Notes: generated by a model from the letters alone, not told the origin. Numbered from the stretch's first letter, positions 14,131-39,591 are shown. The stretch is 64,000 bases of DNA from an uncultured Candidatus Saccharibacteria bacterium (GCA_964514375.1 CAZEQH010000004.1:191-64190), one strand, 5' to 3'. Program-made: numbers and translations.

Positions 14131-15342
14131 TCAGCTAATATTTTTATGTCCCATAATGATACCTTCCGAAACTAGGGCTCTCAGGGCCGCCAGGTTCTGC
14201 GCCAGCCCCACCGAAGCCATGACCTGGGCAAGTTCTTCAGCGCTACTCACTTTCATAATTTTCAGAGATATAGCAGCCAGCGGGTGGTTCTTGATACTCT
14301 CCCCTACGCTGCCAGCCGCCACAGGGACTGTCATATTTCCTATAAGATTTCCCTTTCTGTCTTTTTCCCACTTTGATAAGGGCTTATAAGCGCCGGAGCG
14401 TACGGCAAAGCCGTGTACAGCGGCCTCAAGGGCCCTCCAATCGTTGCCGGTAGCCAGGGCCACGGCCCCCATGCCGTTCAGGATGCCCTTATTACTGGTT
14501 ACTGCCCGGTAGATATCGCTTTCTGCAATAATAGAGGCCTTGGTTATATTTTCAACGGTAGTTTCAGCGTCAAACCCCTTTTTCTTTAAAGCTTCCTTTT
14601 TTATTACGGCAGTTACCTTTACCAGCCTCTCCTCTGCCAGATTGGATACAATCTTAAGCAAGGCCTTTCCTCCGGTGATTTTTTCCATCAGGGGAGCTGT
14701 ATACTCTGCCATCTTATCTGCAGTATTGGCTCCCATGGCATCCCCGACGTCGATTACCAAATGAATCCTTAAGAAAGTTCCTATCTTTTTATTTTTGAAA
14801 ATTGCCGTTCTAACATCCCTGACGCCGCCTCCGGCTTTGATAAGGGCGGGGTCGCTTAGGTTGGCAAACTTGATTATATTTTCTTTCTCCTGAAGTAATT
14901 TTTTCTCAGCCTCCCCTGGTTTCTTAACTTCCACCAGATATATCTGACCGTACATAAAATTGCCAAGCACCTCAGCCTTTATACCCCCGGACTGTCGGGT
15001 CATCTTAGCTCCGTAAGAAGCGGCTGCTACCACGGAAGGTTCTTCTGTTACCATGGGCACAAGATAATCTTTTTCGTTAATCAAAAAATTAGGAGCTACG
15101 GAATAAGGAAGAGGAAAGGCCCCAATCACATTTTCCGACAACCGGTTTCTCGCTTTCGGGGACAGTATGCCTGCCTTGATGATATTCGTTTCCTCTGAAG
15201 TTAACCCTGCGAATTTTTTTACCCTCTCCAATCTCTCGCCGGCTGAAATATGAAAGAAATCCGGGAATCTGCTGTTTCTTTTTCTGTTCATAAGAAAGCT
15301 TCTTATTAGTTTCAGCTTATCTAATTTTTCTGTTAAAATCAA
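14131..15342 (-). CDS. mvaA: Hydroxymethylglutaryl-CoA reductase, class II
   Basis: Motifs ENVIGAFPLPYSVAPNFLIN, VTEEPSVVAAAS and DAMGANTADKMAE are typical of class II HMGR. The true start may be the internal Met (MNRKRNSRF, nt 15291), which would leave room for the divergent smpB promoter. Confidence 0.8.
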   Translation of the reverse strand: MILTEKLDKLKLIRSFLMNRKRNSRFPDFFHISAGERLERVKKFAGLTSEETNIIKAGILSPKARNRLSENVIGAFPLPYSVAPNFLINEKDYLVPMVTEEPSVVAAASYGAKMTRQSGGIKAEVLGNFMYGQIYLVEVKKPGEAEKKLLQEKENIIKFANLSDPALIKAGGGVRDVRTAIFKNKKIGTFLRIHLVIDVGDAMGANTADKMAEYTAPLMEKITGGKALLKIVSNLAEERLVKVTAVIKKEALKKKGFDAETTVENITKASIIAESDIYRAVTSNKGILNGMGAVALATGNDWRALEAAVHGFAVRSGAYKPLSKWEKDRKGNLIGNMTVPVAAGSVGESIKNHPLAAISLKIMKVSSAEELAQVMASVGLAQNLAALRALVSEGIIMGHKNIS

Positions 15343-20367: not shown

Positions 20368-20772
20368 TTATCCCTTTATTATTTTCACGTTAATTTCCCG
20401 CTGACGGGGACGATTGTCAAAGTCGATGAATGCTATCTGCTGCCAGGTTCCCAAGACCAGTCTGCCCTCTTCTACGGAAACGGCGAGGAAGGGTTTAAGC
20501 AGCGCCGACCTCACGTGCGCATAACCGTTGCAATCTCCCCATTTCTTGCAATGTTCGTAATCCTTGGAAACCGGAGCTATTCTATCAAGCGTTCTTTTTA
20601 AATCCTCTATCAGGCCGGATTCATATTCCAGAGTAGTAATGCCGCAGGTGGAACCTGCGCAGGAAACGAAACAAACACCTTCTTTTATGTTTGCATCTGC
20701 GACTATTCCCGAAACCTGGTCTGTAATGTCAATTATGTCCGTAAATCCCCTCGTTTCTATGGAAAATTTCAT
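20368..20772 (-). CDS. YjbQ/UPF0047 family protein (secondary thiamine-phosphate synthase-like)
   Basis: TRGFTDIIDITDQV...GVCFVSCAGSTCGITTLEYESGL...GYAHVRSALL...LGTWQQIAFIDFD is a typical UPF0047 pattern. Confidence 0.75.
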   Translation of the reverse strand: MKFSIETRGFTDIIDITDQVSGIVADANIKEGVCFVSCAGSTCGITTLEYESGLIEDLKRTLDRIAPVSKDYEHCKKWGDCNGYAHVRSALLKPFLAVSVEEGRLVLGTWQQIAFIDFDNRPRQREINVKIIKG

Positions 20773-21767
20773 ATTGAAGACTTATCAACCTTATCAAGGA
20801 TGATTTTTTTAAAAAATATCACCCCGTAACGCATAATGACAACCAGACCGGCCAGAGAAAATAAAAGCTCTGCTGCCCTGATAATCATGGTAAAGGCAGT
20901 GGCAGCCGGCACCCCCATGCCTAATGACTTGAAGGCGAAAGCCTGAATGGCCTCATGGGAACCAAGGGAGGTGGGGATGGGGATCATAGCGGCCAAATAA
21001 GTAAAGCTGAGTATGGAAACAGCCGAGATGGGAGAAATTTCCTTCACCAAGAAAGCTATCAGAAGCCAAGTCCGAAGATACATCACTGCTGCCCGCAAAA
21101 AGGAAATTAAGAAGCTTTTAACCATTGGCTTGTTCTCGAAACGAAAGAAATCAAAAATCTCCTTTTCTATCAGCAGAGGTTCTTCGCTGAGACTGCCTCC
21201 AAAAAGGCGTCTGAATGTTTTGGCGATACTTTCTCTTCTGAAGGTTTTGAAGTAAAACCACGAAATGGCAGCCGAAAACAGCAGAAAGACTCCTCCGAAG
21301 GTTATTAAAAGGTTTTTGGGAGGCAAACCCATCCTGCTTAGAAAAAAAGTGAGGCCTGCCAGAATAATAACCAGATTCACGGTCCATTCCAGCACCCTGT
21401 CGATTACGACGGAAGCCAGGGCCTTTGACCAGGAAAGGCTGCTTTTTCTTTTGACGGCATACGCACGAAAAACTTCTCCCCCCCAAACCAGAACCGGAGC
21501 CAAAAACATAACCGCAAAACCTGCCAGATAGGGACTGAAAAGGTCCCAGAAAGAGATATTCACGTCCTGACCTTTTAAAATTTCCCGCCACCTCCAGTTA
21601 GCTGTGAGTATTATCAGCAGGGTTAAGATAAAAATCAATATTCCCTCCCATCCTTTAAATACCATCAAGGCTCCTTTAATTTCATTCCAGCCAACAAAAC
21701 CAATAACCCATTTTAGGAGTATTATTCCCGCAATCAATGATAAAATAAGCAGTAAAATGCGTTTCAT
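20769..21767 (-). CDS. Flippase-like / lysylphosphatidylglycerol-synthase-TM-region (UPF0104) family membrane protein
   Basis: 332-aa polytopic membrane protein. The N-terminus (MKRILLLILSLIAGIILLKWVIGFVGWNEI) and overall layout resemble UPF0104. The assignment is by resemblance only. Confidence 0.45.
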   Translation of the reverse strand: MKRILLLILSLIAGIILLKWVIGFVGWNEIKGALMVFKGWEGILIFILTLLIILTANWRWREILKGQDVNISFWDLFSPYLAGFAVMFLAPVLVWGGEVFRAYAVKRKSSLSWSKALASVVIDRVLEWTVNLVIILAGLTFFLSRMGLPPKNLLITFGGVFLLFSAAISWFYFKTFRRESIAKTFRRLFGGSLSEEPLLIEKEIFDFFRFENKPMVKSFLISFLRAAVMYLRTWLLIAFLVKEISPISAVSILSFTYLAAMIPIPTSLGSHEAIQAFAFKSLGMGVPAATAFTMIIRAAELLFSLAGLVVIMRYGVIFFKKIILDKVDKSSI

Positions 21768-22174: not shown

Positions 22175-23221
22175 CTATCTTCGGAAATTAATAAGCTTGA
22201 CACCTTCTGTTTCCGTGGTAACCGGGAAAGAGGAAAAACCTTTTTCATTAAAAAGTTCAGAGAGAGCTTTTTCTCTTTTGTCATCCTCTGCCAATATTAT
22301 GCAGCAGCCTCCTCCCCATCCTCCGGTAGGTTTTGCCCCAAGGGCTCCGTTCTCGCGAGCCAGGGAAATTATCCTATCTAATTCGGGAGTGGAGATATGC
22401 AGCTTACTCAGTTCCTGATAATATTCCGTCATCAGCCCGCCAACCTTCCTTAGATTGTTTGTGGATAAAGCCGACAAAGCCTTTCGGGAAATTAAATCCA
22501 GGTCTTCCATTATCCGGCTCACCTGAGAGGGATTTTTTTCCCGCAGTTCTCTGACATAGGAAACCGTTTCTGAGGTCATGGCTTTCTGGCCGCTGTCCAC
22601 AATCAAAAGGGGCAGGCTAAAGTCAATTTTCATCCGCCTGATACCGCCGGATTTTCTGTAGGTAAGGTATCCTCCCCAGGTAACGGCGCTGTTATCGATA
22701 CCCGAAGGAGTTCCTCCATGTGCTATAATGTCTCCCCGGTAAGCGAATTCTGAAATCTCTCTCTCGGAGAGACTCTTACCCAAAAGTTTCAGGACTGCCG
22801 CGCTAATGGCAGAAAAAACGGCTGAGCTTGAACCCAGACTGTTGGGAATGTCAGAATCAATCTCAATATGTATACCATGAAAGGTGCGGTATTTTTTAAA
22901 AATCTCAGCTATTACAAAAAAACTCGGCGCAAGGTTATTTTGCGCCAGGTTTTCCTTTATTTTCTGAAAATCTCCGCTCTTCTCCCAAGCCCTTATCTCT
23001 TCTGCTTTCTGGAAAAGACCCTTCTCATCCAGGGAATCTTTAAACCCCAAACCATGGGAATCTATATCAATCCTTTCTTCCGACAGCAGCGACGCCTTAA
23101 CCCGGCATCTCCTGTCTATGCTGCAAACGATGCCTAATTTGTCATAAACAACGGCGTGTTCGCCAAAGAGAATAACCTTTCCGGGAGCTGAGGAAATAAC
23201 CATTTTATTGTGAAGAATCAA
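22175..23221 (-). CDS. mvk: Mevalonate kinase (GHMP kinase family)
   Basis: SAPGKVILFGEHAVVYDKLGIV at the N-terminus; GHMP ATP-binding motif PNSLGSSSAVFSA; C-terminal GAKPTGGWGGGC. Confidence 0.75.
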   Translation of the reverse strand: MILHNKMVISSAPGKVILFGEHAVVYDKLGIVCSIDRRCRVKASLLSEERIDIDSHGLGFKDSLDEKGLFQKAEEIRAWEKSGDFQKIKENLAQNNLAPSFFVIAEIFKKYRTFHGIHIEIDSDIPNSLGSSSAVFSAISAAVLKLLGKSLSEREISEFAYRGDIIAHGGTPSGIDNSAVTWGGYLTYRKSGGIRRMKIDFSLPLLIVDSGQKAMTSETVSYVRELREKNPSQVSRIMEDLDLISRKALSALSTNNLRKVGGLMTEYYQELSKLHISTPELDRIISLARENGALGAKPTGGWGGGCCIILAEDDKREKALSELFNEKGFSSFPVTTETEGVKLINFRR

Positions 23222-26208: not shown

Positions 26209-27243
26209 ATGATTACAATCGACGGTTCCAAAATGGAAGGAGGAGGACAGATTTTGAGAACCTCCCTCGCCCTGGCCTCAAGTTTAAGACAGTCCTGCGA
26301 AGTTTCTCATATAAGGGAAGGAAGGGAAAAACCCGGCCTCATGCCTCAGCACTTGTCGGCCTTAAAGGCGGCGGCTGAATTGTGCGGAGGGGAGGTAAAG
26401 GGGGATTTCCTGGGAAGCAGGACGATACAGTTTTTTCCCGGCGCCTCTACAGAAAAATCTCTGACCATTAAGCTGGAAACGGCGGCCAGCATTCCTTTAA
26501 TAATGCAGGCCCTAATACTCCCCAGTCTTGTGTCTTCTTCTCCTGTTTCTATAAGTGTCAGAGGGGGGGCTACCGACACCTTCTTTGCCCCGTCATGGGA
26601 TTTCTTCCAGCATGTATTTCTAAAAATATTGGAAAGGATGGGAGCTGAGATAGAAGTGGAAACTAAAAAAAGGGGTTATTTTCCGGAAGGCGGTGCGGAA
26701 ATCATTTTGAAAATCCATCCCTCTTCTTTGAAAATTCGTTCCCTTACTAAAAGAGGGGAATTGACGAAAATATCGGTTTTTTCGGGAGCATCTTCTTCTC
26801 TACGGGAAAGAAAGGTAGCCGAACGCCAGATTACGGGAGCCAGAAGTGTGCTAGACAAGCTGAAAGGTTTTCCCGTACATACAGACATTAGGTATTACCA
26901 AACAGAATCCCCCGGCAGTCATATTTGCCTGGCGGCAGAATTCACCGGCACGGTTCTGGGGACAGATGTTCTGGGAACCCTGGGTAAAAGAGCTGAGGAC
27001 GTGGGACGGGAAGCTGCATCCAACTTACTGGAAGAAGAAAAAAATGGCGCCTGCCTGGATAAACATCTGACAGACCAGGCCCTTCCCTTTCTTGCCCTGC
27101 ATCCAAAAAAAATCGAGGTCAAGACCTCGCAAATTACCAGCCACGCCAGGACTAATATGTGGGTGATTGAAAAATTTATAAAAGGAAAATTCGAAACGCG
27201 GGAAAATAACATTACCTGGCTGCCGCTACAATCTAATCAGTGA
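26209..27243 (+). CDS. rtcA: RNA 3'-terminal phosphate cyclase RtcA
   Basis: IDGSKMEGGGQILRTSLALASSL at the N-terminus and the length (344 aa) are typical of RtcA. Confidence 0.8.
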   Translation: MITIDGSKMEGGGQILRTSLALASSLRQSCEVSHIREGREKPGLMPQHLSALKAAAELCGGEVKGDFLGSRTIQFFPGASTEKSLTIKLETAASIPLIMQALILPSLVSSSPVSISVRGGATDTFFAPSWDFFQHVFLKILERMGAEIEVETKKRGYFPEGGAEIILKIHPSSLKIRSLTKRGELTKISVFSGASSSLRERKVAERQITGARSVLDKLKGFPVHTDIRYYQTESPGSHICLAAEFTGTVLGTDVLGTLGKRAEDVGREAASNLLEEEKNGACLDKHLTDQALPFLALHPKKIEVKTSQITSHARTNMWVIEKFIKGKFETRENNITWLPLQSNQ

Positions 27244-27245
27244 AT

Positions 27246-28220
27246 TCAGATAGACTTATGCAAAGAAATGTTAGACCATTTCCCGCATCGGTCCCCCCAG
27301 CGCGCCATGGTTTTTCCTTCCATCTTTGCTTCTATAACTTCGCAGTGATTCGGACACCCGTCGCACTGGAAAGAAGTGCACTGGACGTCTTTATCTGAAA
27401 CCTCAAAGCCTAAAAATTTTGTTTTATCGGGAGCGGCTTCTTCAACCAGAAGAGCTGCTCCAAATGCCCCCATAACAGTATTATAAGAAGGGACAATAAT
27501 TTCCTGCTGCAAGGCATCTTCAAAGGCCTTCCTCATTCCTATGTTTTGAGAAACTCCTCCCAGGAAAACTATAGGAGCACTGACGTTCTTGCCTTTAGCT
27601 ACATTAGCTAAAAAATTCCTCGCCAGACCCTGGCATAAACCAGCGACAATATCCTCCACCCTGTGCCCTATCTGCTGTTTATGAATCATGTCGGACTCAC
27701 AAAAGACCGTACACCTAGAGCCGATGTTGGTCGGCTTTTTAGATTTTAAAGACAGACCTCCAAATTGTTCTATGGGTATTTTCAGCCGGAAGGCCTGAGC
27801 GTCGAGGAAAGACCCCGTGCCGGCTGCACAAATCAGGTTCATGGCAAAATCCACCGCTACACCATTGTCCAGAATAATAATCTTGGAATCCTGACCTCCT
27901 ATCTCTATGATAGTCCTGACGTCCGGCACCACGAAAGACGTGCCTTTGGCATGGGCTGTAATTTCGTTCTTAACCAAGTCCGCTCCTGTAATGACTCCGG
28001 CTAGATAGCGTGCAGAACCCGTAGTCCCCACGCCCACTATATCAACGTCCATGTCATTACTTTTAAGATAATCGTGCAGGTGTTTAAGCCCCTTCTGGAC
28101 AGCGCCGATGGGGTTGCCTTCCGTTCTCCTGTACAGATGATATAGTATCTTCCCGTCCGGGTCTATTAAGACCAGCTTAGTAGAAATGGAACCTACGTCT
28201 ATACCTAAATAAGTCTTCAT
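27246..28220 (-). CDS. BcrA/BadF/HgdC-type ATPase (CoA-substrate-specific enzyme activase-like) with a Cys-rich C-terminal extension
   Basis: ASKHA-fold N-terminus YLGIDVGSISTKLVLID, then GVGTTGSARY, ICAAGTGSFLD, SRCTVFCESDM and FLGGVSQN. The C-terminus is CTSFQCDGCPNHCEV...WGDRCGKW. Confidence 0.7.
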   Translation of the reverse strand: MKTYLGIDVGSISTKLVLIDPDGKILYHLYRRTEGNPIGAVQKGLKHLHDYLKSNDMDVDIVGVGTTGSARYLAGVITGADLVKNEITAHAKGTSFVVPDVRTIIEIGGQDSKIIILDNGVAVDFAMNLICAAGTGSFLDAQAFRLKIPIEQFGGLSLKSKKPTNIGSRCTVFCESDMIHKQQIGHRVEDIVAGLCQGLARNFLANVAKGKNVSAPIVFLGGVSQNIGMRKAFEDALQQEIIVPSYNTVMGAFGAALLVEEAAPDKTKFLGFEVSDKDVQCTSFQCDGCPNHCEVIEAKMEGKTMARWGDRCGKWSNISLHKSI

Positions 28221-29308
28221 GATAAACTTTGGCGATTATACTTCTTATGATGGTTTTTGACAACATCCACGAAGGCCTCCAGCCTGGTATCAATACCCGC
28301 TTCAGCCACCTGTTCGTCCAGAGAAAGAGATAAAAAAGGAATGTTTTTTTCCTTATGGATGTTCTCCAAGATAGGCCTTACCGTTACTTCAGGCATGCAG
28401 CCGAACGGCAGCAGGTGAACGACCCCGTCAAACTTTTTCTCTGCATAATCCAGCATCTCATAAATAGCGTCCCTGCCGTGGCCTCCAACGGTGGATTTCA
28501 AATAGGGATTTATCTTCCGCTGGATAACCCAATCCTTCCAGGGAAAAATTATCTTCTGAATATGATAAGTAACGTCCATTTCACGATGAACCTCAATGCC
28601 TTCTTTCCCCAGCTTTCTCTCCACTCCAAAATTGATATGAGGATCGCTCACGGTATATATCTCTCCTATAATGCCCACCCTAGGTACGGATTTATTCTTA
28701 TCAACCTTGATCTTAAGCAGTTTTTTCCCTATTTCAGTTTCAAGGCTCGACAATTCTTCCGGCCGATCCGCTCTTTCCATCCTGGCTAAAAAATAATCTA
28801 CTAATTTATCCGTTTCTCCGGCCTGAATTTCCCGCGGCCGATAATACTGGGCCTTTCTATCCACCTTTTCTACAAGCCATAGTTTTTTGAAAAAGATTCT
28901 GGCAGCCCTGAAAATCTGTGAAAAGGAAGCTCCGGAAACGCTTTTTACTTTCTTATAAATATTCTTGGGCGTTATCTTAAGGTCAATGAAATCAATATCC
29001 CAACCGTTTTCCTTGAGAATCTTATTCTGTATGGCTCCATAATACCTTTGTCGGCAGGATCCTCCTACGTTTTGTACCATAAAAATGGTGTTGGCTCCTT
29101 TTCTTAAGGCAGGTAAGTAGTTTCCGATAGTGGCTTTCATGGGAAAACAAAACATGTCTGGAACCAACTTAGCTCCCTCAGAAACGGTCCTGGGGTTAGT
29201 TTTTTCGGGGGGGATAACTTCCAAGCCCAATTGTTCAAAAAGGGTTTTGAAGGCTACGGTATAATTGCCCCAGCCGGCAAAAGTAACTATGGTTTTTTCT
29301 CTGGGCAT
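28217..29308 (-). CDS. 2-hydroxyacyl-CoA dehydratase/activase-associated subunit-like protein (second component)
   Basis: Resembles the C-terminal module of the large fused CoA-enzyme-activase proteins. It ends in DEQVAEAGIDTRLEAFVDVV, paralogous to the upstream gene's terminus. The start is set at ATG 29308 (MPREKTIVTFAGWGNY), 4 nt after the upstream stop, rather than the track start at 29380, which would overlap by 68 nt. Confidence 0.5.
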   Translation of the reverse strand: MPREKTIVTFAGWGNYTVAFKTLFEQLGLEVIPPEKTNPRTVSEGAKLVPDMFCFPMKATIGNYLPALRKGANTIFMVQNVGGSCRQRYYGAIQNKILKENGWDIDFIDLKITPKNIYKKVKSVSGASFSQIFRAARIFFKKLWLVEKVDRKAQYYRPREIQAGETDKLVDYFLARMERADRPEELSSLETEIGKKLLKIKVDKNKSVPRVGIIGEIYTVSDPHINFGVERKLGKEGIEVHREMDVTYHIQKIIFPWKDWVIQRKINPYLKSTVGGHGRDAIYEMLDYAEKKFDGVVHLLPFGCMPEVTVRPILENIHKEKNIPFLSLSLDEQVAEAGIDTRLEAFVDVVKNHHKKYNRQSLS

Positions 29309-29312
29309 AATA

Positions 29313-30230
29313 TTAATGGAGGGTATCCACGAAAGCCTCCAGCCTGGTTTGAAGGCCCGCTTCTCCCGTATGTTCGTCAATAATCAAATAAAGAAAAGGG
29401 GTTTTTCTTTTTTTAAATTCTCCTTCCACCATCTCTTTAATGACGCCGTCGCATCCGCATTGAAAAGAGGATATTTCCACTCCTCCCGTAATATTATATT
29501 TAAAGATTTCCCTGATTTTTTCAACTATTTCCTCGGCAAATTCCCAATGGAAATCCACTTCGGACAAGTCGCCGGCAGCACCCTTTCTTTTGGGTAAAAA
29601 TTTACGATGTCTGACCGGCACTTCTTCCAGCATAAGCGGCTGAACTCCCAACCGGAGAAGTTTCTCTTCGGTTCTCAGATTTACATAGGTATCATACAGA
29701 TTGTAGGGATGGGAAATTAAAATAATCTTAGGCTTTTTAGACGCCAGTTTTTTAAAAAATTTTTCCTCTTTTTTCAGCTCTTCTCTTTTTTCCTTTAAAA
29801 GTGAGTCCCTCAGCGCCGCCTTGACGTCTTGGACATTTTTATCAAGTTGAGCGCCCAGCTGCTCCAGGCTTTTCTGAAAAGACCTTTTCTTTTGGTCTAA
29901 GGTGCAGGTCAGTATGGGCGTAGTCACAAGAATTTGAGCCAGGTCCGGCAAACCGAAAAATTTCGGACAGTATTCCAGTTTTATTTCGTTGGTTTTAAGC
30001 CGTGGAACAAAGATTAAATCACATTTCTTGTCCAACCACATAAGGTGGCCCCAATACACCTTATTGGAGAAACATGTTTCCGGGTCTGCCTTCTTCACCC
30101 CCATCTCCACTATCTCTCTGTTGGTGGCGGGAGAAAGCAAGACCTCAAAACCCAGATTCTTGAAAAAACCCTCCCAGAAAAGTGGTCTCTTCCAATAAAC
30201 TAAAGCTTTAGGAATGCCTATAGTAACCAT
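29313..30230 (-). CDS. DUF2229-like CoA-enzyme-activase-associated protein (first component)
   Basis: N-terminus IGIPKALVYWKRPLFWEGFFKNLGFEVLLSPATN...ETCFSNKVYWGH is typical of the uncharacterised domain fused to BcrA/HgdC-type activases. The C-terminus is DEHTGEAGLQTRLEAFVDTL. Confidence 0.5.
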   Translation of the reverse strand: MVTIGIPKALVYWKRPLFWEGFFKNLGFEVLLSPATNREIVEMGVKKADPETCFSNKVYWGHLMWLDKKCDLIFVPRLKTNEIKLEYCPKFFGLPDLAQILVTTPILTCTLDQKKRSFQKSLEQLGAQLDKNVQDVKAALRDSLLKEKREELKKEEKFFKKLASKKPKIILISHPYNLYDTYVNLRTEEKLLRLGVQPLMLEEVPVRHRKFLPKRKGAAGDLSEVDFHWEFAEEIVEKIREIFKYNITGGVEISSFQCGCDGVIKEMVEGEFKKRKTPFLYLIIDEHTGEAGLQTRLEAFVDTLH

Positions 30231-30235
30231 AAATA

Positions 30236-31489
30236 TTAAAGCAGAATCCCCTGCTTGGATAGACTTCTGTTTTCTTCGCTGGAAAATATTTTTACCTTCC
30301 CATAAACTCCGTCGTAACCGGGCTCTATAATTACTCTTCCTTCCCGAACTCTTATAATGCCTTCTGCAATCTCAGCTGCTGCCGTCCGCTCCAAGTCTTC
30401 TCTGGGTACGTCAAGCAGAATTTTTATCTCACTCCCCAGATTTTCGGTCAAAGAATTATATTCTTCCCTTACCTTTTTAGTTTTAACCCCAACTCCCAGG
30501 GCTTCTGAAATTATTTCCTTCAGCGGAACCAGTCTTTTAAAGGGAATGGCATGTTCCGGATGGAAACCGGGAGGATTTTGGGCCAGCTGTTCTATCCGGT
30601 TTAATACTCCTATAGTCAGCTGACGCCCACAGTTTGGGCAGATATTATTACATTTCCTTGATTCTGCTGGAGAAAAGCAAACACCGCAGATTCTGTGACC
30701 GTCGTAGTGATATTTACCCTCTTGGGGAAAAAACTCAATAGTATAAAGAAATTTTCCGTTGTCTCTATTTTTAAGCGCCGAAATAAGTGATGGATAACTC
30801 ATTTCTGTGTCAAAAACATTCACCTCTCTCCCTATGTTTTCCGGCGAATGGGCGTCGGAATTGGACACAAGGGTTAATGTTCCCCCCTCCCCCAGCCTCC
30901 ATATCATTTCAGGGTCTGCGGAAAGCCCTGTTTCCATGGCAAAAATATAGTCGGAATAATCCTCAAAACATTCTTTTAGAGAATTGAATCCCGATTTGGA
31001 GCCGAAGAGAGCGAACCAGGGAGTCATCACGTGGGCCGGAATCACCATACACTGCTCCGACGCATCAAGAATTATGCCGGTCAATTCCTTAGCGTCCAAA
31101 CCCAGTATCGGCCTGCCGTCGGCGGACAAATTGCCTATTTCAGAAAGCCTCCCGTTAATTTTTTCTACTGCCTCAATAGAGGGGGCTAAGACCAGAATAT
31201 GGATTTTGCGCACCCTGTCGTTCTTGGAATAAATACAGCTTATCTCCGCCGTTAAAATGAAACGGGTAAATTCTCCTGTCTGTTTTTTTATTTTAAAAAG
31301 ACCTTCCTCTGCAGATTCTAATTTCTTTTTAATATTCTCCATCCAATAGGGATGGGTGAAGTCGCCGGTCCCCAAGACATGAATCCCCTTGATTTTTGCC
31401 CATCGGTCAAGGGTTTCCAGTTCCATTTGGGGAGAAGTGGCTCTAGAATATTTAGAATGCAGATGAAGGTCCGCTATGAGCCTCATCAC
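30236..31489 (-). CDS. PHP-domain endonuclease, endonuclease Q (EndoQ)-like
   Basis: N-terminus ADLHLHSKYSRATSPQM...HVLGTGDFTHPYW, and a zinc-finger segment CGVCF...CPNCGRQLTIGVLNRIEQL. From memory it resembles Pyrococcus EndoQ (DLHIHS.YS.A...GTGD). Confidence 0.55.
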   Translation of the reverse strand: MMRLIADLHLHSKYSRATSPQMELETLDRWAKIKGIHVLGTGDFTHPYWMENIKKKLESAEEGLFKIKKQTGEFTRFILTAEISCIYSKNDRVRKIHILVLAPSIEAVEKINGRLSEIGNLSADGRPILGLDAKELTGIILDASEQCMVIPAHVMTPWFALFGSKSGFNSLKECFEDYSDYIFAMETGLSADPEMIWRLGEGGTLTLVSNSDAHSPENIGREVNVFDTEMSYPSLISALKNRDNGKFLYTIEFFPQEGKYHYDGHRICGVCFSPAESRKCNNICPNCGRQLTIGVLNRIEQLAQNPPGFHPEHAIPFKRLVPLKEIISEALGVGVKTKKVREEYNSLTENLGSEIKILLDVPREDLERTAAAEIAEGIIRVREGRVIIEPGYDGVYGKVKIFSSEENRSLSKQGILL

Positions 31490-31920
31490 TCCTTATTAAA
31501 AACTTTCTTTTCCAACGATCCCATCCCTGACAGCACCAATAGTACTAAGAAGGTGGTAAAAGCTGAAAGGGAAAAGAATTTCATTCCCACAGCCGTACCT
31601 ATGGCGGACACTGTCCAAAGGCCGGCAGCCGTAGTCAAACCTACTACTCCGGAAGACTGCTGGAAAATCACGCCAGCCCCGATAAAACCTATTCCTATCA
31701 CTATGGCTTGAATAACTCTGATGGGGTCGAAAACCATTTTAGAGTAATCCTTATAAACAGACACTATACTGAATGCAATAATAGTAAAGAGACAGGAACC
31801 CAGACAGACCAAACTGTAGGTTTGCAGACCGGCTCCCTTCTTCTTGTATTCTCTTTCCAGGCCGATGAGGGCACCTAAGAAAGTAGCTAAAACCAGTTGA
31901 TAGATTATTTGAAAATCCAT
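31486..31920 (-). CDS. MgtC/SapB family membrane protein
   Basis: LGALIGLEREYKKKGAGLQTYSLVCLGSCLFTII is the typical MgtC N-terminal membrane-domain signature. Confidence 0.7.
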   Translation of the reverse strand: MDFQIIYQLVLATFLGALIGLEREYKKKGAGLQTYSLVCLGSCLFTIIAFSIVSVYKDYSKMVFDPIRVIQAIVIGIGFIGAGVIFQQSSGVVGLTTAAGLWTVSAIGTAVGMKFFSLSAFTTFLVLLVLSGMGSLEKKVFNKE

Positions 31921-31941: not shown

Positions 31942-32211
31942 TTATATTTTATAAACCTTGTATCCTTCCCTAACCTTCTGGTCAAACTTCAAACCCACAG
32001 AATCACCTTTCTTGGCCTTTTTCATTTTTTTGTGGTCAACCTCCATGGATTCCACCTGCTGTTCAAAATCAGTTTCTCCACCCACAACCCTGATATTTTC
32101 TCCTTCCTCCAAGCCGCCAGAAAGCTCTACGACTCCTACTCGTATATGCCCGAAATAATGACTAATAATGCCGATAAGTTTCCCCTCAGGATTTAATTTT
32201 TTTTCCGGCAT
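31942..32211 (-). CDS. Small beta-barrel protein resembling elongation-factor domain 2 (translation elongation factor-like)
   Basis: 89 aa. IGIISHYFGHIRVGVVELSGGLEEGENIRVVG...KGDSVGLKF resembles the EF-Tu domain-2 barrel. Weak assignment. Confidence 0.35.
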   Translation of the reverse strand: MPEKKLNPEGKLIGIISHYFGHIRVGVVELSGGLEEGENIRVVGGETDFEQQVESMEVDHKKMKKAKKGDSVGLKFDQKVREGYKVYKI

Positions 32212-32225
32212 ACTATTTTATTGGT

Positions 32226-32780
32226 TTATTTTGCGACCTTTACCTTATCTTGTTTGATAAGTTTGATAAGCTTCCTAACGATTTTCTTAGGGTCTGTGTC
32301 GTAGGCAATCTTTTTAGTACCTCTAAAGGGAACGTTGGCAATGAATTTTATTTTATCTGCCGTCCCTCCCGTACCTTCCAATACGCCTATGGGTTTCTGT
32401 ATTTCGAAGGCGGTGACAAATTCGTGCAGGGTGCCCATTCTGCCGCAAATGACGATGACTCCGTCAGCCGCCTTGGTCATAATAATATTTCTGCCCGTGT
32501 AGTCCGCCCCCGTATATACTATCGCATCAAAAGGATCCATGGGAAGCTTATAAGTCTTGACATGAGCCGCTTCTGAAGTGGCCGGAGAAAAACCGATGGA
32601 AAGCCCTCCCACCTCCTTAAATCCCAAGGCTGAAAAATAGGGAACCCCAGTGGTTGCTCCCGTCACTAAAACACATTTTTGCCGGGCCAGCTCCTTTCCC
32701 ACCTCCCTGGAGATTTCCTCAATCCCTTCACAGCAGTGGTTTATCTGAGCAGCTCCGGATACTGCAATTTTGTAAGGCAT
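32226..32780 (-). CDS. TIGR00725/LOG-like Rossmann-fold protein
   Basis: IAVSGAA...VLVTGATTGVPY...GVIVICGRMGTLHEFVTAF resembles the LOG/TIGR00725 family (GGxGTxxE-like motif). Confidence 0.5.
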   Translation of the reverse strand: MPYKIAVSGAAQINHCCEGIEEISREVGKELARQKCVLVTGATTGVPYFSALGFKEVGGLSIGFSPATSEAAHVKTYKLPMDPFDAIVYTGADYTGRNIIMTKAADGVIVICGRMGTLHEFVTAFEIQKPIGVLEGTGGTADKIKFIANVPFRGTKKIAYDTDPKKIVRKLIKLIKQDKVKVAK

Positions 32781-33203: not shown

Positions 33204-33908
33204 TTATTTCAGCGCCAGCTTTCTGGCTACGATATAGGTATTCTGGCGGGTTTCCCGCTGGTTCTCCGCTATCCCTAATTTTACCACTCTGAAGCCTGCT
33301 TTTTCCAGAGCGTCTCTTAGTTCCTTCCCGTAAAAATAATGATAATATCTCTCCGTCCTATCTCCCCAGGGCACCAGTATGTCTCCCCAATCCAGCTCTG
33401 ATTTCCTAATTACTTTTAGCCAGGTATACTTAAGTAACAGCATAAGCTCGCGGAAACGGTTAAATCTCCATACCGTCAGCACTAAAAGACCCTTATTTTT
33501 CAACACCCTCTGCGCCTCCTTTAGGAATTTTAATCTAAGCTGACGGGAAGGAATCTGATGGAATACGGCAACACTGAAAATCTTGTCAAAAAATTCATTA
33601 GGAAAAGAAAGTTCCAAGGCATCCTCTACAAAAAAATTGGCTTCGGGAAATTTTTTCCTGGCAATCTCAATCAGTGCTTCCGAATTATCCCCTCCAAAGT
33701 AAACCACCCCTTCTCTCTGAAAGAATGGATAATATCGTCCATTACCGCATCCCAAATCCAAAACCTTATCTCCGGGTTCGAGATACTCTTCAAATAAAAA
33801 TTTTGTTTCCGGCCAGGGGCTTTTCCGAGTTCTTGAAAAATCCTTGGCTATCAAGGTATAATCCTGTTTAGTCTTCCCGAGAAGATACCTTGCATATTCT
33901 TCTTGCAT
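33204..33908 (-). CDS. Class I SAM-dependent methyltransferase, Trm9-like (candidate tRNA mcm5U34 methyltransferase)
   Basis: SAM motif VLDLGCGNGRY, plus three stretches that match my recollection of yeast Trm9: IAKDFSRTRKSPWPE (Trm9 IAPHFSQTRYKPWP), DILVPW (DVFVPW) and ERYYHYFYGKELRDALEKAGF (YRYYHLYREGELAEDCRQAG). Confidence 0.6.
   Translation of the reverse strand: MQEEYARYLLGKTKQDYTLIAKDFSRTRKSPWPETKFLFEEYLEPGDKVLDLGCGNGRYYPFFQREGVVYFGGDNSEALIEIARKKFPEANFFVEDALELSFPNEFFDKIFSVAVFHQIPSRQLRLKFLKEAQRVLKNKGLLVLTVWRFNRFRELMLLLKYTWLKVIRKSELDWGDILVPWGDRTERYYHYFYGKELRDALEKAGFRVVKLGIAENQRETRQNTYIVARKLALK
33833..33862 (+). promoter_or_regulatory. Sigma-70-like promoter for elp3, embedded in the methyltransferase coding region
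   Basis: TTGAAA (33833-33838), 18-nt spacer, TATAAT (33857-33862), about 45 nt upstream of the elp3 ATG. Confidence 0.45.
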
Positions 33909-35540
33909 ATGAAATCAGAATATTTAATTCTAAAGGATTTATCCAACCACCAAAAAGAGGCTCGCAGCAACCTCCATGCCTTTAAGAGAAAAATGGCTAA
34001 AAAGTACCAGATTCCTTTTCCCAGCAACTTCCAGCTGTTAAGAGCTTATCATAATATTAGGAAAGAGAAAAGAATCAAGAAAATAGAAGGCATAAACCGC
34101 CTGCTTAGAACGCGGCCTGTACGCTCGCTTTCCGGTATTGTTAATGTCTCTGTACTGACCAAACCCTATCCTTGTCCCGGCAAATGCATCTTCTGTCCCC
34201 AAGAAGAGGGAATACCTAAGAGCTATCTCTCCGGAGAGCCCGCAGTAGAAAGGGCGAAAGAATTGGACTATCAGCCCTATAAACAGACCAGGAAAAGGCT
34301 GGAAACGCTGAAGGACCAGGGGCATCCGGGTGATAAAATAGGACTCAGAATAATCGGAGGGACGTGGTCTTTCTATCCTAAACGATATCAAAGCTGGTTT
34401 ATGAAGCAGTGTTTTGACGGCTGTAACGGCAAGATAAGCAAAACCTTGAGGGCGGCGCAAAGATTTAATGAAAGTTCCCGCCGCCGAATCGTTGAATTGT
34501 CTGTTGAAACCAGACCGGATTTCATCGATGAGAAGGAAGCGAAAAGAATGAGAAAACTCGGCGTTACCAAAGTAGAAATGGGGGCTCAAAGCCTTTCCGA
34601 CCGCGTTTTAACACTAAACCAAAGGGGGCATAATGTCAAAGCCCTTATAGACGCCACCAGGCTGCTGAAGGACGCGGGTTTTAAGGTCTCCTATCAGATG
34701 ATGCTGAACCTGCCCGGCTCGACCCCCGCGGAAGACATTAAAACTTTTGAAAGGTTATTTGACAATGCTTCTTTCAGGCCGGACTCCTTAAAGATTTATC
34801 CCTGCGCCCTGCTCAAGGAATCCCGTCTTTTTCAATGGTATTTGAAGGGAAGATATAAACCCTATACGGAAAAAACTCTGATTAACGTTATAAAATCAAT
34901 AAAAACTAAGATTCCTTATTACGTCAGGATAGAAAGGGTAATCCGGGATATACCCGCTCCCAGGATAGCGGCAGGTCCGGCTAAAGTATCGAATTTAAGA
35001 CAACTAGTTGAAGAAGAAATGAAGAAGGAAAAAAAAGACTGCAGATGCATCAGGTGCCGTGAGATAAAGAACAGGTACTGCCTCTCAGAAAAAGCTGAGT
35101 TGCATCGGCATGATTACCAGGCCTCATTGGGCAGGGAAATATTTTTGAGTTTTGAAGACAGGAAAAGAAGAAAACTTTACAGCCTCTTAAGGATGAGAAT
35201 CCCTTCATGGGTTTCCTCTAATCTGGAAAGTGAATCCCGACAAGCCCGCGGCCACAAGGGAAAATTATTCCTTCCTGTTTTAAAAAACTCGGCCCTCATA
35301 AGAGAAATCCATACTTATGGCCAAATGGTTCCCATAGATAAAAAAAGAACTGCTCCCCAGCACAAAGGATTAGGTCAGAAGCTGCTGAAAGCTGCTGAAA
35401 GAGTAGCAAGGGAAGAATTCGGTCTGCCCAGGATAGCTGTCATCTCGGGTGTCGGAGCCCGCAACTATTATCGAAAGAACGGATACCGCTTAAGTTCCAC
35501 CTATATGGTAAAAAACCTCTGTGAAAGAGGTTCTCTATAA
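33909..35540 (+). CDS. elp3: Elp3-type radical SAM / GNAT acetyltransferase (tRNA U34 carboxymethylation enzyme homologue)
   Basis: RTRPVRSLSGIVNVSVLTKPYPCPGKCIFCP (Elp3 radical-SAM cluster site), EMGAQSLSD, and a C-terminal GNAT segment QHKGLGQKLLKAAERVAREEFG. The ATG at 33909 is preferred over the track's TTG at 33903. Confidence 0.8.
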   Translation: MKSEYLILKDLSNHQKEARSNLHAFKRKMAKKYQIPFPSNFQLLRAYHNIRKEKRIKKIEGINRLLRTRPVRSLSGIVNVSVLTKPYPCPGKCIFCPQEEGIPKSYLSGEPAVERAKELDYQPYKQTRKRLETLKDQGHPGDKIGLRIIGGTWSFYPKRYQSWFMKQCFDGCNGKISKTLRAAQRFNESSRRRIVELSVETRPDFIDEKEAKRMRKLGVTKVEMGAQSLSDRVLTLNQRGHNVKALIDATRLLKDAGFKVSYQMMLNLPGSTPAEDIKTFERLFDNASFRPDSLKIYPCALLKESRLFQWYLKGRYKPYTEKTLINVIKSIKTKIPYYVRIERVIRDIPAPRIAAGPAKVSNLRQLVEEEMKKEKKDCRCIRCREIKNRYCLSEKAELHRHDYQASLGREIFLSFEDRKRRKLYSLLRMRIPSWVSSNLESESRQARGHKGKLFLPVLKNSALIREIHTYGQMVPIDKKRTAPQHKGLGQKLLKAAERVAREEFGLPRIAVISGVGARNYYRKNGYRLSSTYMVKNLCERGSL

Positions 35541-35563: not shown

Positions 35564-36457
35564 TTAAATAACGAATTTGACCGCCAGGTACCCCAGAATG
35601 GAGAAAAAAGCAATGGGCGGCAGGGCAGGAATAGGATTCCTTCTTTTCTGGAAAGCAAAAAAATAAAAGCTGGCCAAAAGCCCCATCACCGAAAACAGGG
35701 CCACGATAAGGGTTTTAGTAATGCCGAATGAAGGAACCAGAGAACAGCACAGGAATAACGGAAAAACTATGTCACCACCTCCTAAAATAAGGAATTTTCC
35801 CCCGGGCTTTAATTCTTCCAGGCGCTCCTGGAAACCCAAGATACTTCGGGGTATTATCAACCCTAGAATCGCCCTGCTTTCTATCATTTGTTTGGCCATT
35901 TCCACCATGTGTTTGGTTTTATAGACCGCCACAACATCGTATACAGAGAAAACTATCAAGAGGGCTACTACTATTTCCGGCTTAAATGCCAGTCCTAAAA
36001 AACTCCCGGCTCCGGAAATCCCCAGTACGATACAGAGATCCTGGATAAAAACAGAGGGCCACAGCCACCACCAGGCTAAAAAAATTGTCATCAGGAAAAG
36101 TGCCGGCAGATAAGGAAACCAAACGCTCATCATAGAAATGCCCCCTAAAAAAACAGCTGCCACAAAAATCAGCTTAAAAATCAATCCCTTCTGTTTTCTA
36201 AACTTCACTAGTTGAATAATCAGAAGAACAAAAAGCGTAGTCAAAAGAAACTGGAGAATGAAATGCCAAAATGATATTTCAGGAATAGCCATATTTTGCT
36301 CCTTGAGAGTGGCGCTGATTTCAAGAGCGGTAAAAATACCCAGCAGTAAAGTGAGAGAAAAGAGGAATACTTCAATAATGAGAATTTTCCAAAAAGGTTT
36401 TAGAAAAGAAAGCTCTTCATCAACCTCCAGCTGGCGATTATTTGTCTCTTCTGCCAT
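35564..36457 (-). CDS. Presenilin/signal-peptide-peptidase-like GxGD intramembrane aspartyl protease (peptidase A22 family-like)
   Basis: Polytopic membrane protein with the three family signatures in canonical order: FSVYDVVAVY (YD), FLILGGGDIVFP (GxGD) and NPIPALPPIAF (PAL). Confidence 0.65.
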   Translation of the reverse strand: MAEETNNRQLEVDEELSFLKPFWKILIIEVFLFSLTLLLGIFTALEISATLKEQNMAIPEISFWHFILQFLLTTLFVLLIIQLVKFRKQKGLIFKLIFVAAVFLGGISMMSVWFPYLPALFLMTIFLAWWWLWPSVFIQDLCIVLGISGAGSFLGLAFKPEIVVALLIVFSVYDVVAVYKTKHMVEMAKQMIESRAILGLIIPRSILGFQERLEELKPGGKFLILGGGDIVFPLFLCCSLVPSFGITKTLIVALFSVMGLLASFYFFAFQKRRNPIPALPPIAFFSILGYLAVKFVI

Positions 36458-37714: not shown

Positions 37715-39181
37715 TCACTCTCCCTTAATCACCGCTAAGGGTTTTAAAATTGCGACTTTTTTAGAAAGACCGGCTTTACTCACCACCTCTATCACTTCGT
37801 CTATGTCTTTATAAGCAAGAGGAGCTTCCTCGGATATACCTCTCAAGCTGTGACATTTTATAATTACCCCCTTTTGTTCTAACCTTTTTATTACTTCTTG
37901 TCCAGAAATCCGTCTCTGGGCTTCTCTCCGCGACATGGTCCTGCCGGCGCCATGGCAGGTTGACCAAAAGCTTTCTGCCCCCTCCTTGATACCGGCCATC
38001 ACATAAGATGCAGTGCCCATGGAACCCGGAATCAGAACCGGCTGGCCTACCGCGCGATATTGTTCAGGAATCTCTGGGCGGCCGGGAGGAAAAGACCTGG
38101 TAGCTCCTTTTCTATGAACACATAACTCCTCCTTCACCCCGCTTATCTCGTGCCCCTCTATCTTGGCAATATTGTGAGAAACATCATAAAGCATTCTGAG
38201 ATGTGCTTTCTCTCCCAGGACAGATGCCCAGGCCTTCCTGATATAATAAGCTATCATCTGTCTGTTGGCCCAGGCATAGTTTGCCCCGCAGGCCATAGCA
38301 GAAAAATATCTCTTCCCCTCCAGAGAATCTAAAGGACAGCAAGCCAGCTCCCGATCTGGTAAAATGATGCGGTATTTAGCCATAACATCCATCATTGTCT
38401 TAATATAGTCTGTGGCAATTTGGTGTCCTAAACCCCGGGAACCGGTATGTATCATTACTACTACTTGACCTTCGAAAATACCGAAGGCGGATGCTGTTAC
38501 CTCATCAAAAATCTTTTCCACCTTTTGAATCTCGCAAAAATGATTTCCGGACCCCAGAGTACCCACCTGGTCCCTTCCCCTGTTCTTAGCCCTGGCGGAA
38601 ACGGCGGACGAATCCGCCGCGTGCCCAAATTCCCCCTCTTCTTCACAGTTGCTGATATCTTCATCGTTCCCAAAACCCTGTTTCACTAAATAAGCAGATC
38701 CCCCTTCCAATACTCTGTCTATGAAGTTTATGTCAAGCTTCTTCCGTCTTCCCTTCCCCAGACCCGAGGGTACTTCCGTCTGAATCATGGAGGCTAAAGC
38801 ATCCAAATATTTTCCCAATTCCCCTGCAGTATATTCTGACTTCAGCAGCCGCATCCCGCAATTTATATCATATCCCACACCTCCCGGAGATATCACCCCT
38901 TCGCTTACCCTCACTGCAGCCACGCCCCCTATGGGAAAGCCATAGCCTTCATGCATGTCCGGCATAGCTAAACTGTATCTTGCGATACCCGGCAGAGAAG
39001 CAACATTCACTAATTGATTCAGTGACCTGTCACGGAAAATCTCACCCATCATTCTGCCTCCAGTGTATATTCTCGCCGGCACTCTCATATCAGCCCTAAA
39101 ACTCTTTGGAATTTCCCAAACCCAGTCGGATATTTTATGCAGGGTTTCCCTTGAAATCATTTTTTTTGTTTTATATTGCAT
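37715..39181 (-). CDS. rtcB: RNA-splicing ligase RtcB (3'-phosphate/5'-hydroxyl RNA ligase)
   Basis: PDMHEGYGFPIGGVAA, GVGYDINCGMR, HTGSRGLGHQIATDY, SHNIAKIE, CHGAGR: the full set of RtcB metal- and GMP-binding motifs. Confidence 0.9.
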   Translation of the reverse strand: MQYKTKKMISRETLHKISDWVWEIPKSFRADMRVPARIYTGGRMMGEIFRDRSLNQLVNVASLPGIARYSLAMPDMHEGYGFPIGGVAAVRVSEGVISPGGVGYDINCGMRLLKSEYTAGELGKYLDALASMIQTEVPSGLGKGRRKKLDINFIDRVLEGGSAYLVKQGFGNDEDISNCEEEGEFGHAADSSAVSARAKNRGRDQVGTLGSGNHFCEIQKVEKIFDEVTASAFGIFEGQVVVMIHTGSRGLGHQIATDYIKTMMDVMAKYRIILPDRELACCPLDSLEGKRYFSAMACGANYAWANRQMIAYYIRKAWASVLGEKAHLRMLYDVSHNIAKIEGHEISGVKEELCVHRKGATRSFPPGRPEIPEQYRAVGQPVLIPGSMGTASYVMAGIKEGAESFWSTCHGAGRTMSRREAQRRISGQEVIKRLEQKGVIIKCHSLRGISEEAPLAYKDIDEVIEVVSKAGLSKKVAILKPLAVIKGE

Positions 39182-39591
39182 CAGATATCAAACAATACAA
39201 CAGCTTCCCAGAGCCCCTCTCCTTTTTTCCTTACGTTCAAACCGTGGTAAGTGGCAGCTTTAATGTCCCTGCCAAACCGCGCCGCTTTCCTGCCCTTCAG
39301 CTCTCCCTCGATTAATTCAGCGGAAAACTTTCTGAAATCAATACCATTATAAACTTCTTTTTTGACGGAACTAAGATAGAGGCACTCGTTGAGAAAATCT
39401 ACTAATAAGGCCTTTGAGTCTGGTCCCTTCACCTTTATTTTTCTCTTTACTCTCTGTTTGTCGGCGCTGATTTCGGCTTGCTGGGAATCCTCCATTCCAC
39501 GCATCATATTTAGAAAAAGCTCTTTTCTGGTTCTGCCGAAAGATTTTATTTTTAAATCTGCTTTGTGATCCAAAATAACGTATTTATCCAT
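39181..39591 (-). CDS. Archease (RtcB activator)
   Basis: ILDHKADLKIKSFGRTRKELFLNMMRGM (HTAD-like N-terminus) and C-terminal IKAATYHGLNV...WEAVVLFDI. Its stop overlaps the rtcB ATG (TGATG). Confidence 0.75.
   Translation of the reverse strand: MDKYVILDHKADLKIKSFGRTRKELFLNMMRGMEDSQQAEISADKQRVKRKIKVKGPDSKALLVDFLNECLYLSSVKKEVYNGIDFRKFSAELIEGELKGRKAARFGRDIKAATYHGLNVRKKGEGLWEAVVLFDI

Follow-up and report, generated by a model that had tools for sequence, protein, structure and literature searches.

A 64,000-nucleotide stretch of DNA from an uncultured Candidatus Saccharibacteria bacterium (GCA_964514375.1, CAZEQH010000004.1:191-64190; hereafter the window) was analyzed with respect to three adjacent minus-strand genes at positions 27246 to 30230, here called A, B and C (the trio). 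In all likelihood, their products form a complete ATP-dependent radical enzyme of the superfamily of benzoyl-CoA reductases (BCR) and 2-hydroxyacyl-CoA dehydratases (HAD), belonging to its DUF2229 branch, in which only PlsA/PlsR and Ger, both lipid ester reductases, have been characterized. The best overall explanation, to which we give about even chances, is that the trio is an ATP-dependent, electron-consuming reductase that probably acts on membrane-lipid esters; taken by itself, the assignment of a lipid ester as the substrate falls somewhat short of even. The features that carry the argument are as follows.

29313-30230, minus: gene A, Red1-like catalytic subunit, 305 aa, DUF2229 plus HGD-D-like C terminus
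28217-29308, minus: gene B, Red2-like partner subunit, 363 aa, DUF2229 plus HGD-D C terminus
27246-28220, minus: gene C, electron-transferring ATPase of the acetate and sugar kinase/Hsc70/actin (ASKHA) type (activase or 'archerase'), 324 aa
27249-27437, minus: Cys-rich C-terminal extension of C, about residues 262-324
30072-30074, 29967-29969 and 29457-29459, minus: codons of the invariant C53, C88 and C258 of A
29147-29149, 29054-29056 and 28397-28399, minus: codons of the invariant C54, C85 and C304 of B
27828-27830 and 27711-27713, minus: codons of C131 and C170 of C, ligands of a predicted bridging [4Fe-4S] cluster

Composition of the trio

The open reading frames (ORFs) of the three coupled minus-strand genes put forward in the original prediction are present at these positions. 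Read mechanically, the ORF of B begins at a TTG (29380), but the start of B was set at the ATG at 29308, 4 nt past the TAA of A, because this is where the N termini of homologues fall in the alignment. The ATG of C overlaps with the TGA of B in the sequence ATGA. A sigma-70-like promoter match (TTGTCA, 17 nt, TATAAT; 11/12 matches) is located inside the 3′ end of B at 28235-28263 (minus), just upstream of the start of C, and might provide the activase with a transcript of its own.

Profile searches with Pfam and NCBIfam agreed with the families named in the original prediction, i.e., DUF2229, a dehydratase-associated protein and a BcrA/HgdC-type ATPase. Both A and B exceeded the gathering score of DUF2229 (PF09989; 29.4), A with an E value of 1.2e-41 and B with one of 1e-14. 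A weak HGD-D match was found at the C terminus of A, and B matched HGD-D with an E value of 3.4e-7 (30.6 bits versus a threshold of 28.4), the match being confined to its last ~60 residues (profile positions ~275-342 of 342). C matched BcrAD_BadFG in Pfam (E 9e-52) and TIGR00241, 'acyl-CoA dehydratase activase', in NCBIfam (E 1e-60, exceeding the cutoff of 125 bits).

The proposal that A and B are paralogues was borne out by BLASTP (25% identity, E 3e-14) and by their common C-terminal motif, and the two proteins are evidently paralogous. Both terminate in G(L/I)(Q/D)TRLEAFVD, an ending that marks the superfamily as a whole, the double-cubane cluster protein (DCCP) ending in ...LKTRIEAFLE. The original prediction had also pointed to a 23-nt stretch shared by the two genes. 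This stretch is real: it occurs at exactly 2 sites, 28266 and 29326, versus 0 expected, and it encodes the C-terminal motif. In ~25 related genomes, however, the motif-coding copies of A and B are identical at 16-26 of 33 nt and differ at synonymous sites. Thus, the 23-nt identity is a codon coincidence that says nothing on how recent the paralogy is, and a recent duplication or gene conversion was ruled out as its source.

Exactly three cysteines are invariant in each of A and B. Those of A were 100% conserved in 78 sequences, and likewise in 52 representatives, and those of B were 100% conserved in 74 sequences. Together with the two of C described below, they give an invariant pattern of 3 cysteines in A, 3 in B and 2 in C, so that the cluster cysteines called for by the original prediction are present. 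Judged from these alignments, the pattern in A and B is that of a HAD/BCR-type three-Cys [4Fe-4S] site, unlike the seven-Cys double-cubane motif. AlphaFold2 models of A and B had pLDDT values of 93.5 and 85.8, respectively. In the Foldseek comparison with the PDB, the top 16 matches of A and the top 17 of B consisted solely of DCCP, HadB/HadC, BzdNO and MbdON (E 1e-10 to 1e-5, TM 0.5-0.6, 10-18% identity), and below them came unrelated Rossmann-like folds. The models suggested that A and B adopt the BCR/HAD/DCCP fold.

DCCP and its activator, DCCP-R (Carboxydothermus hydrogenoformans; YjiM/YjiL in Escherichia coli), resemble the trio in being a two-component ATP-driven reductase. DCCP was the best fold match for A and B (E ~1e-9 to 1e-10) and, with the entries 7yyl and 6eno, their best PDB match by sequence (E 0.04 and 0.57, respectively), and DCCP-R matches C. 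The sequence match is nevertheless restricted to the common C-terminal segment, and DCCP is a homodimer, whereas the trio has two diverged subunits. DCCP, which acts on small-molecule substrates, is moreover defined by the motif CX19CX18-19CX29CX166-170CX32-34CX32C, in which six Cys from one subunit hold an [8Fe-9S] cluster; this seven-Cys motif is missing from A and B, which have three conserved Cys each (PMC7317905). The Cys count rules out DCCP identity, and it appears very improbable that the trio is a DCCP-type reductase for small molecules.

A parallel in architecture is found in the 2-hydroxyisocaproyl-CoA dehydratase HadBC with HadI, and also in HgdAB with HgdC, which follow the same three-component logic: the activator is an ASKHA homodimer bridged by a [4Fe-4S] cluster, and it serves two homologous subunits that form a heterodimer and have one three-Cys [4Fe-4S] cluster apiece. 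For the trio, known from sequence and models, such clusters are predicted. Fold matches of A and B to this system were strong, and C matched HadI and HgdC at ~1e-40. The trio could be a 2-hydroxyacyl-CoA dehydratase with its activator, catalyzing redox-neutral dehydration in amino-acid fermentation; some B homologues are named '2-hydroxyacyl-CoA dehydratase' by NCBI, B passes the Pfam threshold of HGD-D, and HadBC is among the top structural matches. Against this, the HGD-D match covers the C-terminal end of B only, the HadC equivalog NF052456 (NCBIfam) scored 15.5 bits versus a cutoff of 700, structural identity to HadB/C is 11-14%, and HAD systems have neither DUF2229 nor a four-Cys tail on the activator. 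HAD identity was ruled out by the equivalog scores and the partial HGD-D coverage, and the dehydratase reading, on which the genomic context given below also bears, has in our estimate a very small chance of being right.

Class I benzoyl-CoA reductases (BzdNOPQ, MbdONPQ and BcrABCD), which belong to the same superfamily, couple stoichiometric reduction to ATP, and MbdQ was the best PDB match of C. They differ from the trio in having four distinct subunits and a heterodimeric activase (A/D or P/Q), the activase of the trio being the product of one gene, and no aromatic-degradation genes lie near the trio. BCR identity was rejected, as the BCR equivalogs stayed far below their cutoffs with C (108, 90 and 70 bits versus 578, 380 and 313) and no BCR family in Pfam or NCBIfam was matched by A or B.

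Compared with PDB sequences, C matched MbdQ at 1.4e-42, HadI at 9.5e-42, HgdC at 2.2e-39 and DCCP-R at 3.4e-24, and these activators (243-276 aa) align to residues 2-267 of C only. C131 lies in ...NLICAAGTGSF... and C170 in ...GSRCTVF..., and both are 100% conserved (57 sequences). The ~60 extra C-terminal residues carry the motif C286-x2-C289-x3-C293-x18-C312, which is 98% conserved among homologues. A Cys-rich tail had been noted in the original prediction and is real, but its motif had been delimited incorrectly, since C281, taken there as the first Cys, is conserved in just 19% of the homologues. The four-Cys tail is missing from the solved activators HgdC, HadI, MbdQ/P and DCCP-R, and a Pfam scan of it matched no family.

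Three of the predicted cluster ligands, C131 and C170 of C and C304 of B, are sites of intein insertion in other genomes of the candidate phyla radiation (CPR; loci in other genomes are designated by L numbers). Three independent insertion sites were found, and the ligand Cys is the +1 residue in each of them. The C-extein restarts at C131 of C in the activase gene at L005:12362-14215, and probably likewise in that at L012:2807-5032; it restarts at C170 in the activase gene at L027:7954-9898 and at C304 of B in protein P0337, a B homologue. This placement marks the ligand cysteines as highly conserved and presumably important functional sites.

Relation to the fused proteins and distribution of the split form

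The original prediction likened the trio to the large fused 'CoA-substrate-specific enzyme activase' proteins in split form, and it held the function of these fused proteins to be still unassigned. The latter statement is out of date, for the lipid ester reductases PlsA/PlsR and Ger are now known (PMC12838417, PMC9702350, PMC13159169). The plsA-plsR genes of Clostridium perfringens and the single-ORF plsA of lactic acid bacteria and Bifidobacterium give E. coli plasmalogens, and the domain order of PlsA is Act1-Act2-Red1-Red2 (PMC12838417, PMC9702350). For the fused enzymes, it has been proposed that the ester carbonyl is reduced in two one-electron steps and that protonation and dehydration come next (PMC8788747). 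Ger of Thermotoga and Desulfatibacillum, of domain composition BBDHD(D)H, produces 1-O-alkyl glycerol ethers anaerobically (PMC13159169).

As the fused reference, we used a 1475-aa Listeria monocytogenes protein annotated as '2-hydroxyacyl-CoA dehydratase', which was obtained by tblastn of plasmid-labelled records and whose orthology to C. perfringens PlsA/PlsR is taken from PMC9702350 and PMC12838417, not from direct comparison. The trio aligned colinearly with this protein: A with residues 669-971 (Red1; 27% identity, 1e-20), B with residues 993-1241 (Red2; 27% identity, 9e-16), and C with residues 319-642, comprising the second activase domain and the Cys-rich linker (31% identity, 1e-50). 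The tail of C corresponds to the Act2-Red1 linker and aligns with the Listeria segment 'CNLCSNTCQ...GNRCERG'. The assignment was uniform among homologues from 80 genomes, with 77/77 A-type proteins aligning to Red1, 72/72 B-type proteins to Red2 and 57/57 C-type proteins to Act2 plus the tail. By sequence comparison, then, the description of the trio as a split relative of the fused proteins stands.

PlsA/PlsR (CPE1194/1195 in C. perfringens; single-ORF forms in Enterococcus, Listeria, Lactococcus and Bifidobacterium) is built from the same modules as the trio, i.e., an activase, a Cys-rich linker and two paralogous DUF2229/HGD-D units, and each Red module has three conserved Cys, as in A and B. 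Splitting between modules is already known there, the PlsR gene being separate from PlsA. In contrast, identity to the trio is 25-33%, PlsA has two fused activation domains where the trio has one free-standing activase, and the order is Act-Act-Red1-Red2 in the former and Red1-Red2-Act in the latter. Ger (Tmari_0479 of Thermotoga maritima; SHJ90043 of Desulfatibacillum alkenivorans) has the same Pfam content as the trio (PF01869, PF09989 and PF06050) and is an anaerobic-only enzyme proposed to convert ester into alkyl ether bonds (PMC13159169); the trio, too, occurs in Thermotogota (Petrotogaceae and Kosmotogales). Ger is, however, a single polypeptide with two activation domains (written B in its domain formula), and the trio has one, encoded by a separate gene. 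All alkyl-ether producers conserve a BBD core (PMC13159169). In place of two activation domains fused to the first reduction domain, the trio has one activase, in its own gene and downstream, and the same was found at 57 loci. There is no sequence rule discriminating Ger from PlsA (PMC11868695, PMC13274423), so that the type of product is not predictable from such comparisons.

A direct comparison of the fused and split forms was offered by a Desulfotomaculaceae metagenome-assembled genome (MAG), in which a fused 1427-aa PlsA-type gene, a MarR gene and A-B-C form one same-strand block (L089:864-8940). The fused protein of this locus is 53% identical to the Listeria protein over its full length, while the L089 trio is ~25% identical to either. 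This coexistence, together with the ~25% identity, indicated that the trio is an old paralogue of PlsA/Ger and not an orthologue. The split, single-activase Red1-Red2-Act arrangement is an uncharacterized variant of a machine that is itself of a known kind. A 2026 paper mentions that Bacillota genomes hold 'additional PlsA homologs' without an activation domain and calls their role 'unclear' (PMC13274423); very probably, these are the A and B genes of the split clade.

The split form is widespread. An exhaustive HMMER search with A of 1.84 billion cluster representatives (50% identity clusters) yielded 2079 relatives, 258 of them with E <= 1e-30. The best 150 were nearly all stand-alone proteins of ~300-380 aa, plus some fragments, and seven of them, with 585-765 aa, were apparent fusions, most apparently of A and B. 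A scan of one genome per GTDB species, with a 13-sequence alignment as the query, identified at least 577 species genomes carrying the split trio. The best 80 of these include CPR, Anaerolineae, Dehalococcoidia, Petrotogaceae, Kosmotogales and Actinomycetota, and also many Clostridia (among them the cultured Moorella thermoacetica and Neomoorella carbonis), a Helarchaeota MAG, Ignavibacteriales and Sumerlaeota. The trio does co-occur in other genomes: A-B-C was contiguous, with median gaps of -4 nt, at 57 of the 68 informative loci, i.e., those with enough downstream sequence, and a Monoglobus record has A, B and C in identical order. Thus far, the clade of at least 577 species genomes and ~2,000 clusters at 50% identity bears generic annotation only.

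Within CPR, the trio proteins of many Parcubacteria-type genomes are 60-83% identical, and the next relatives show ~35% identity or less. The closest homologues come from records named as Parcubacteria/Nealsonbacteria-type, and by these names the organism of the window is a CPR bacterium of that type. The original prediction had regarded such a system as unexpected in a reduced genome, which is at odds with this identity across many CPR genomes. To judge from the searchable literature, this strong conservation in CPR has not been described before. At two CPR loci (L019:6001-6903 and L020:6001-6903), A is intact with its three Cys and the upstream LOG, MgtC and EndoQ-like genes are kept; B or C was not found within 6 kb downstream of A.

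Genomic context, proposed mechanism and candidate substrates

The electron economy of the trio was approached through its neighbors in other genomes. An NfnA/NfnB-like pair adjoins the trio at six loci, of which four are from Actinomycetota, one is unclassified and one is from Sumerlaeota. Such neighbors suggest that reduced ferredoxin is supplied to the trio and, hence, that it is a net reductase, and they fit an electron-consuming reductase better than a redox-neutral dehydratase such as HAD, which uses CoA thioesters and recycles its electron. Two further matches were discarded as evidence for electron supply: the 'NfnA-like' match at L012 (CPR) is a dihydroorotate dehydrogenase, and the 'NfnB-like' gene at L057, 32% identical to NfnB and located beside a thioredoxin gene, is probably a thioredoxin reductase. 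CoA-transferase and 2-hydroxyacid dehydrogenase genes, which would speak for the dehydratase, were not found near the trio in the window, and neither these nor aromatic degradation genes recur beside the trio at the loci examined.

Lipid genes directly adjoin the trio on the same strand at seven loci of distant lineages. In Helarchaeota (Asgard archaea; L040:1834-9134), a gene for an 872-aa protein with three PlsC-type acyltransferase domains and a separate HAD hydrolase gene stand immediately upstream of A-B-C. PlsX adjoins the trio at two loci of Dehalococcoidia (L057 and L078), and an acyl carrier protein (ACP) at L075 and L077. In a Thermoleophilia MAG, a GT4 gene, a polysaccharide deacetylase gene and then LPG_synthase_TM (L049:4701-5831) lie directly upstream. 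The seventh locus is L089 with its fused PlsA-type gene. If its contig is truly archaeal, the Helarchaeota locus places bacterial-type ester-lipid genes beside a putative ester reductase in an archaeon.

In the mechanism that we propose, a homodimer of C would hold one [4Fe-4S] cluster between its subunits via C131 and C170, and a low-potential donor (ferredoxin or flavodoxin) would pass an electron to it. ATP binding and hydrolysis by C would then drive the electron into a heterodimer of A and B, in each of which a three-Cys [4Fe-4S] cluster is predicted to have an open iron site. One of these clusters would bind the carbonyl oxygen of the substrate and give rise to a ketyl-type radical, which permits reduction and water loss, and the second would store or relay an electron, as in HadBC (PMC7317905); the reduction would be stoichiometric. 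The four-Cys tail of C could be an extra metal site or a docking element that replaces the Act2-Red1 linker of the fused enzymes; metal binding by the tail and docking of C onto A are both probable. Homology and genomic context make a membrane glycerolipid the likeliest substrate, one of its acyl esters being turned into an alk-1-enyl or alkyl ether. By this ester-to-ether conversion, a CPR cell that scavenges lipids or is poor in them would be able to remodel its membrane.

Several observations weigh against a lipid ester as the substrate. The trio homologues are ~25% (A and B) and 31-33% (C) identical to PlsA-type proteins, while true PlsA orthologues retain 41-55% identity (PMC12838417); the trio does not reach orthologue-level identity to validated PlsA or Ger, and it constitutes a separate clade. 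No fused enzyme of >1000 aa was present among the best 150 relatives of A. In L089, the trio is found beside a fused PlsA-type gene, so that its substrate need not match that of PlsA. Of 60 non-CPR loci, just ~7 had lipid-gene neighbors. Outside CPR, the trio is most often met next to the spoVA sporulation operon (16 loci), and the CPR context with EndoQ-like and MgtC genes is not lipid-related. Neither a ferredoxin-type Cys motif nor another electron-donor gene was found within the 64-kb window, and no functional study of the split form was found in the literature searched. Lipidomics of a CPR-dominated 0.1-µm fraction from Crystal Geyser found no bacterial ether lipids (bioRxiv 10.1101/465690). 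By our reading of its name, one trio-bearing Parcubacteria MAG (CG1_ prefix) appears to come from this site.

Much of this would be explained if the same machine acted on a non-lipid substrate, such as another carbonyl compound, be it a small metabolite or a thioester of CoA or ACP, with the likeness to PlsA and Ger reflecting shared ancestry only. The distinct clade at ~25% identity, the fused gene in L089, the scarcity of lipid neighbors and the lipidomics result all agree with such a substrate, and with the ACP and PlsX neighbors, acyl-ACP or acyl-phosphate would be a fitting substrate, too. On the other side, glycerolipid esters are the substrates of all characterized DUF2229 proteins (PMC13159169, PMC9702350), lipid genes adjoin the trio in several independent cases from distant phyla, and no genes of an alternative pathway recur beside the trio. 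We consider a non-lipid substrate rather unlikely, though a serious contender; if it were correct, the trio would remain a widespread predicted ATP-driven radical reductase of another reaction.

The spoVA context raises a different possibility, namely, that in Firmicutes the trio belongs to the sporulation program, being co-transcribed with the operon for the spoVA dipicolinate channel and serving forespore maturation, and that the CPR copy is derived. At 16 loci of spore-forming Firmicutes, A-B-C directly follows spoVAC-AD-AE-AF on the same strand (e.g., L036:2403-9366 and L045:2366-9071), with lysA, an M50 peptidase gene and scpA coming after the trio. The spoVA and trio ORFs overlap or abut in Moorella and Neomoorella, and the Monoglobus trio is near dapF, DapL and ylmC. 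The arrangement may represent an operon or ancestral synteny; dacF-spoIIA-spoVA-lysA-scpA is an ancestral Firmicutes synteny block, and the adjacency is possibly historical. Moreover, non-sporulating CPR, Thermotogota, Chloroflexota, Actinomycetota and Asgard archaea keep the trio strongly conserved, and a role in forespore membrane lipids would agree with a membrane-lipid ester reductase, not rival it. We consider a primary function in sporulation improbable.

Returning to the lipid ester reductase, a more specific version is conceivable, although we regard it as unlikely to hold as a whole: instead of a redundant plasmalogen synthase, the trio would be a distinct, hitherto undiscovered lipid-ether enzyme, whose reaction might be reduction of the sn-2 ester or conversion of vinyl to alkyl ethers, and in Parcubacteria-type CPR it would produce ether lipids by remodeling phospholipids scavenged from the host. 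CPR bacteria are thought to rely on other cells for their membrane lipids. If the lipid reading is true, they would actively shape their own membrane by a conserved, ATP-costly ester-to-ether enzyme, and if the scavenged phospholipids are indeed its substrates, this would be the first lipid-modifying capacity assigned to Parcubacteria-type CPR. More broadly, the split clade would be an obvious candidate for the formation of the sn-2 and saturated ether bonds of bacterial ether lipids, including the branched glycerol dialkyl glycerol tetraethers that are used as palaeoclimate markers.

Upstream genes and other features of the window

Four genes precede A in the same orientation.

30236-31489, minus: EndoQ-like/MJ0043 PHP protein
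31486-31920, minus: MgtC
31942-32211, minus: EF-Tu-domain-2-like protein, 89 aa
32226-32780, minus: SLOG/LOG-like protein (TIGR00725 SLOG)

EndoQ-like, MgtC and A are spaced by <=5 nt or overlap, and the run LOG-like, EF-Tu-D2-like, MgtC, EndoQ-like/MJ0043, A, B, C lies on one strand. The operon suggested in the original prediction is thus present, but it is conserved within CPR only: the order from the LOG-like gene to C is kept in five related CPR loci, and EndoQ-like, MgtC and the other CPR upstream neighbors were absent at all non-CPR loci examined. At the CPR locus L008, the upstream genes are set apart from A by a gap of 550 nt and a HicA gene. Since the run is confined to the CPR lineage and is broken in L008, a functional tie of the four upstream genes to the trio is doubtful.

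Genes related to lipids and isoprenoids are located elsewhere in the window. An LPG_synthase_TM (MprF-N-terminal-like) membrane protein is encoded at 20769-21767 (minus), 5.5 kb from C, and HMG-CoA reductase and a GHMP kinase, which are mevalonate-pathway genes, at 14131-15342 (minus) and 22175-23221 (minus). In relatives (L007:13785-16745), three GHMP-family genes stand in a row, the middle one with the diphosphomevalonate-decarboxylase domains MVD-like_N and MDD_C. The organism of the window appears to make its isoprenoid precursors via the mevalonate route.

Families best known from archaea and eukaryotes abound near the trio, and their synteny is kept in related CPR genomes. They comprise RtcA, RtcB plus Archease, an ELP3-like radical SAM/GNAT protein and a presenilin-type signal-peptide peptidase, together with the MJ0043/EndoQ-like PHP protein and the TIGR00725 SLOG protein, and the set occupies 26209-27243 (plus), 33903-35540 (plus), 35564-36457 (minus), 37715-39591 (minus), 30236-31489 (minus) and 32226-32780 (minus). 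The isoleucyl-tRNA synthetase (8868-12377, minus; 1169 aa) has a His_Phos_1 insert (7e-34) at residues 493-654, which sits inside the class I catalytic domain and is unusual for an aminoacyl-tRNA synthetase. Finally, dnaN and dnaA lie together at 56424-59032 (minus), an arrangement that puts the probable origin of chromosome replication close to 59 kb in the window.

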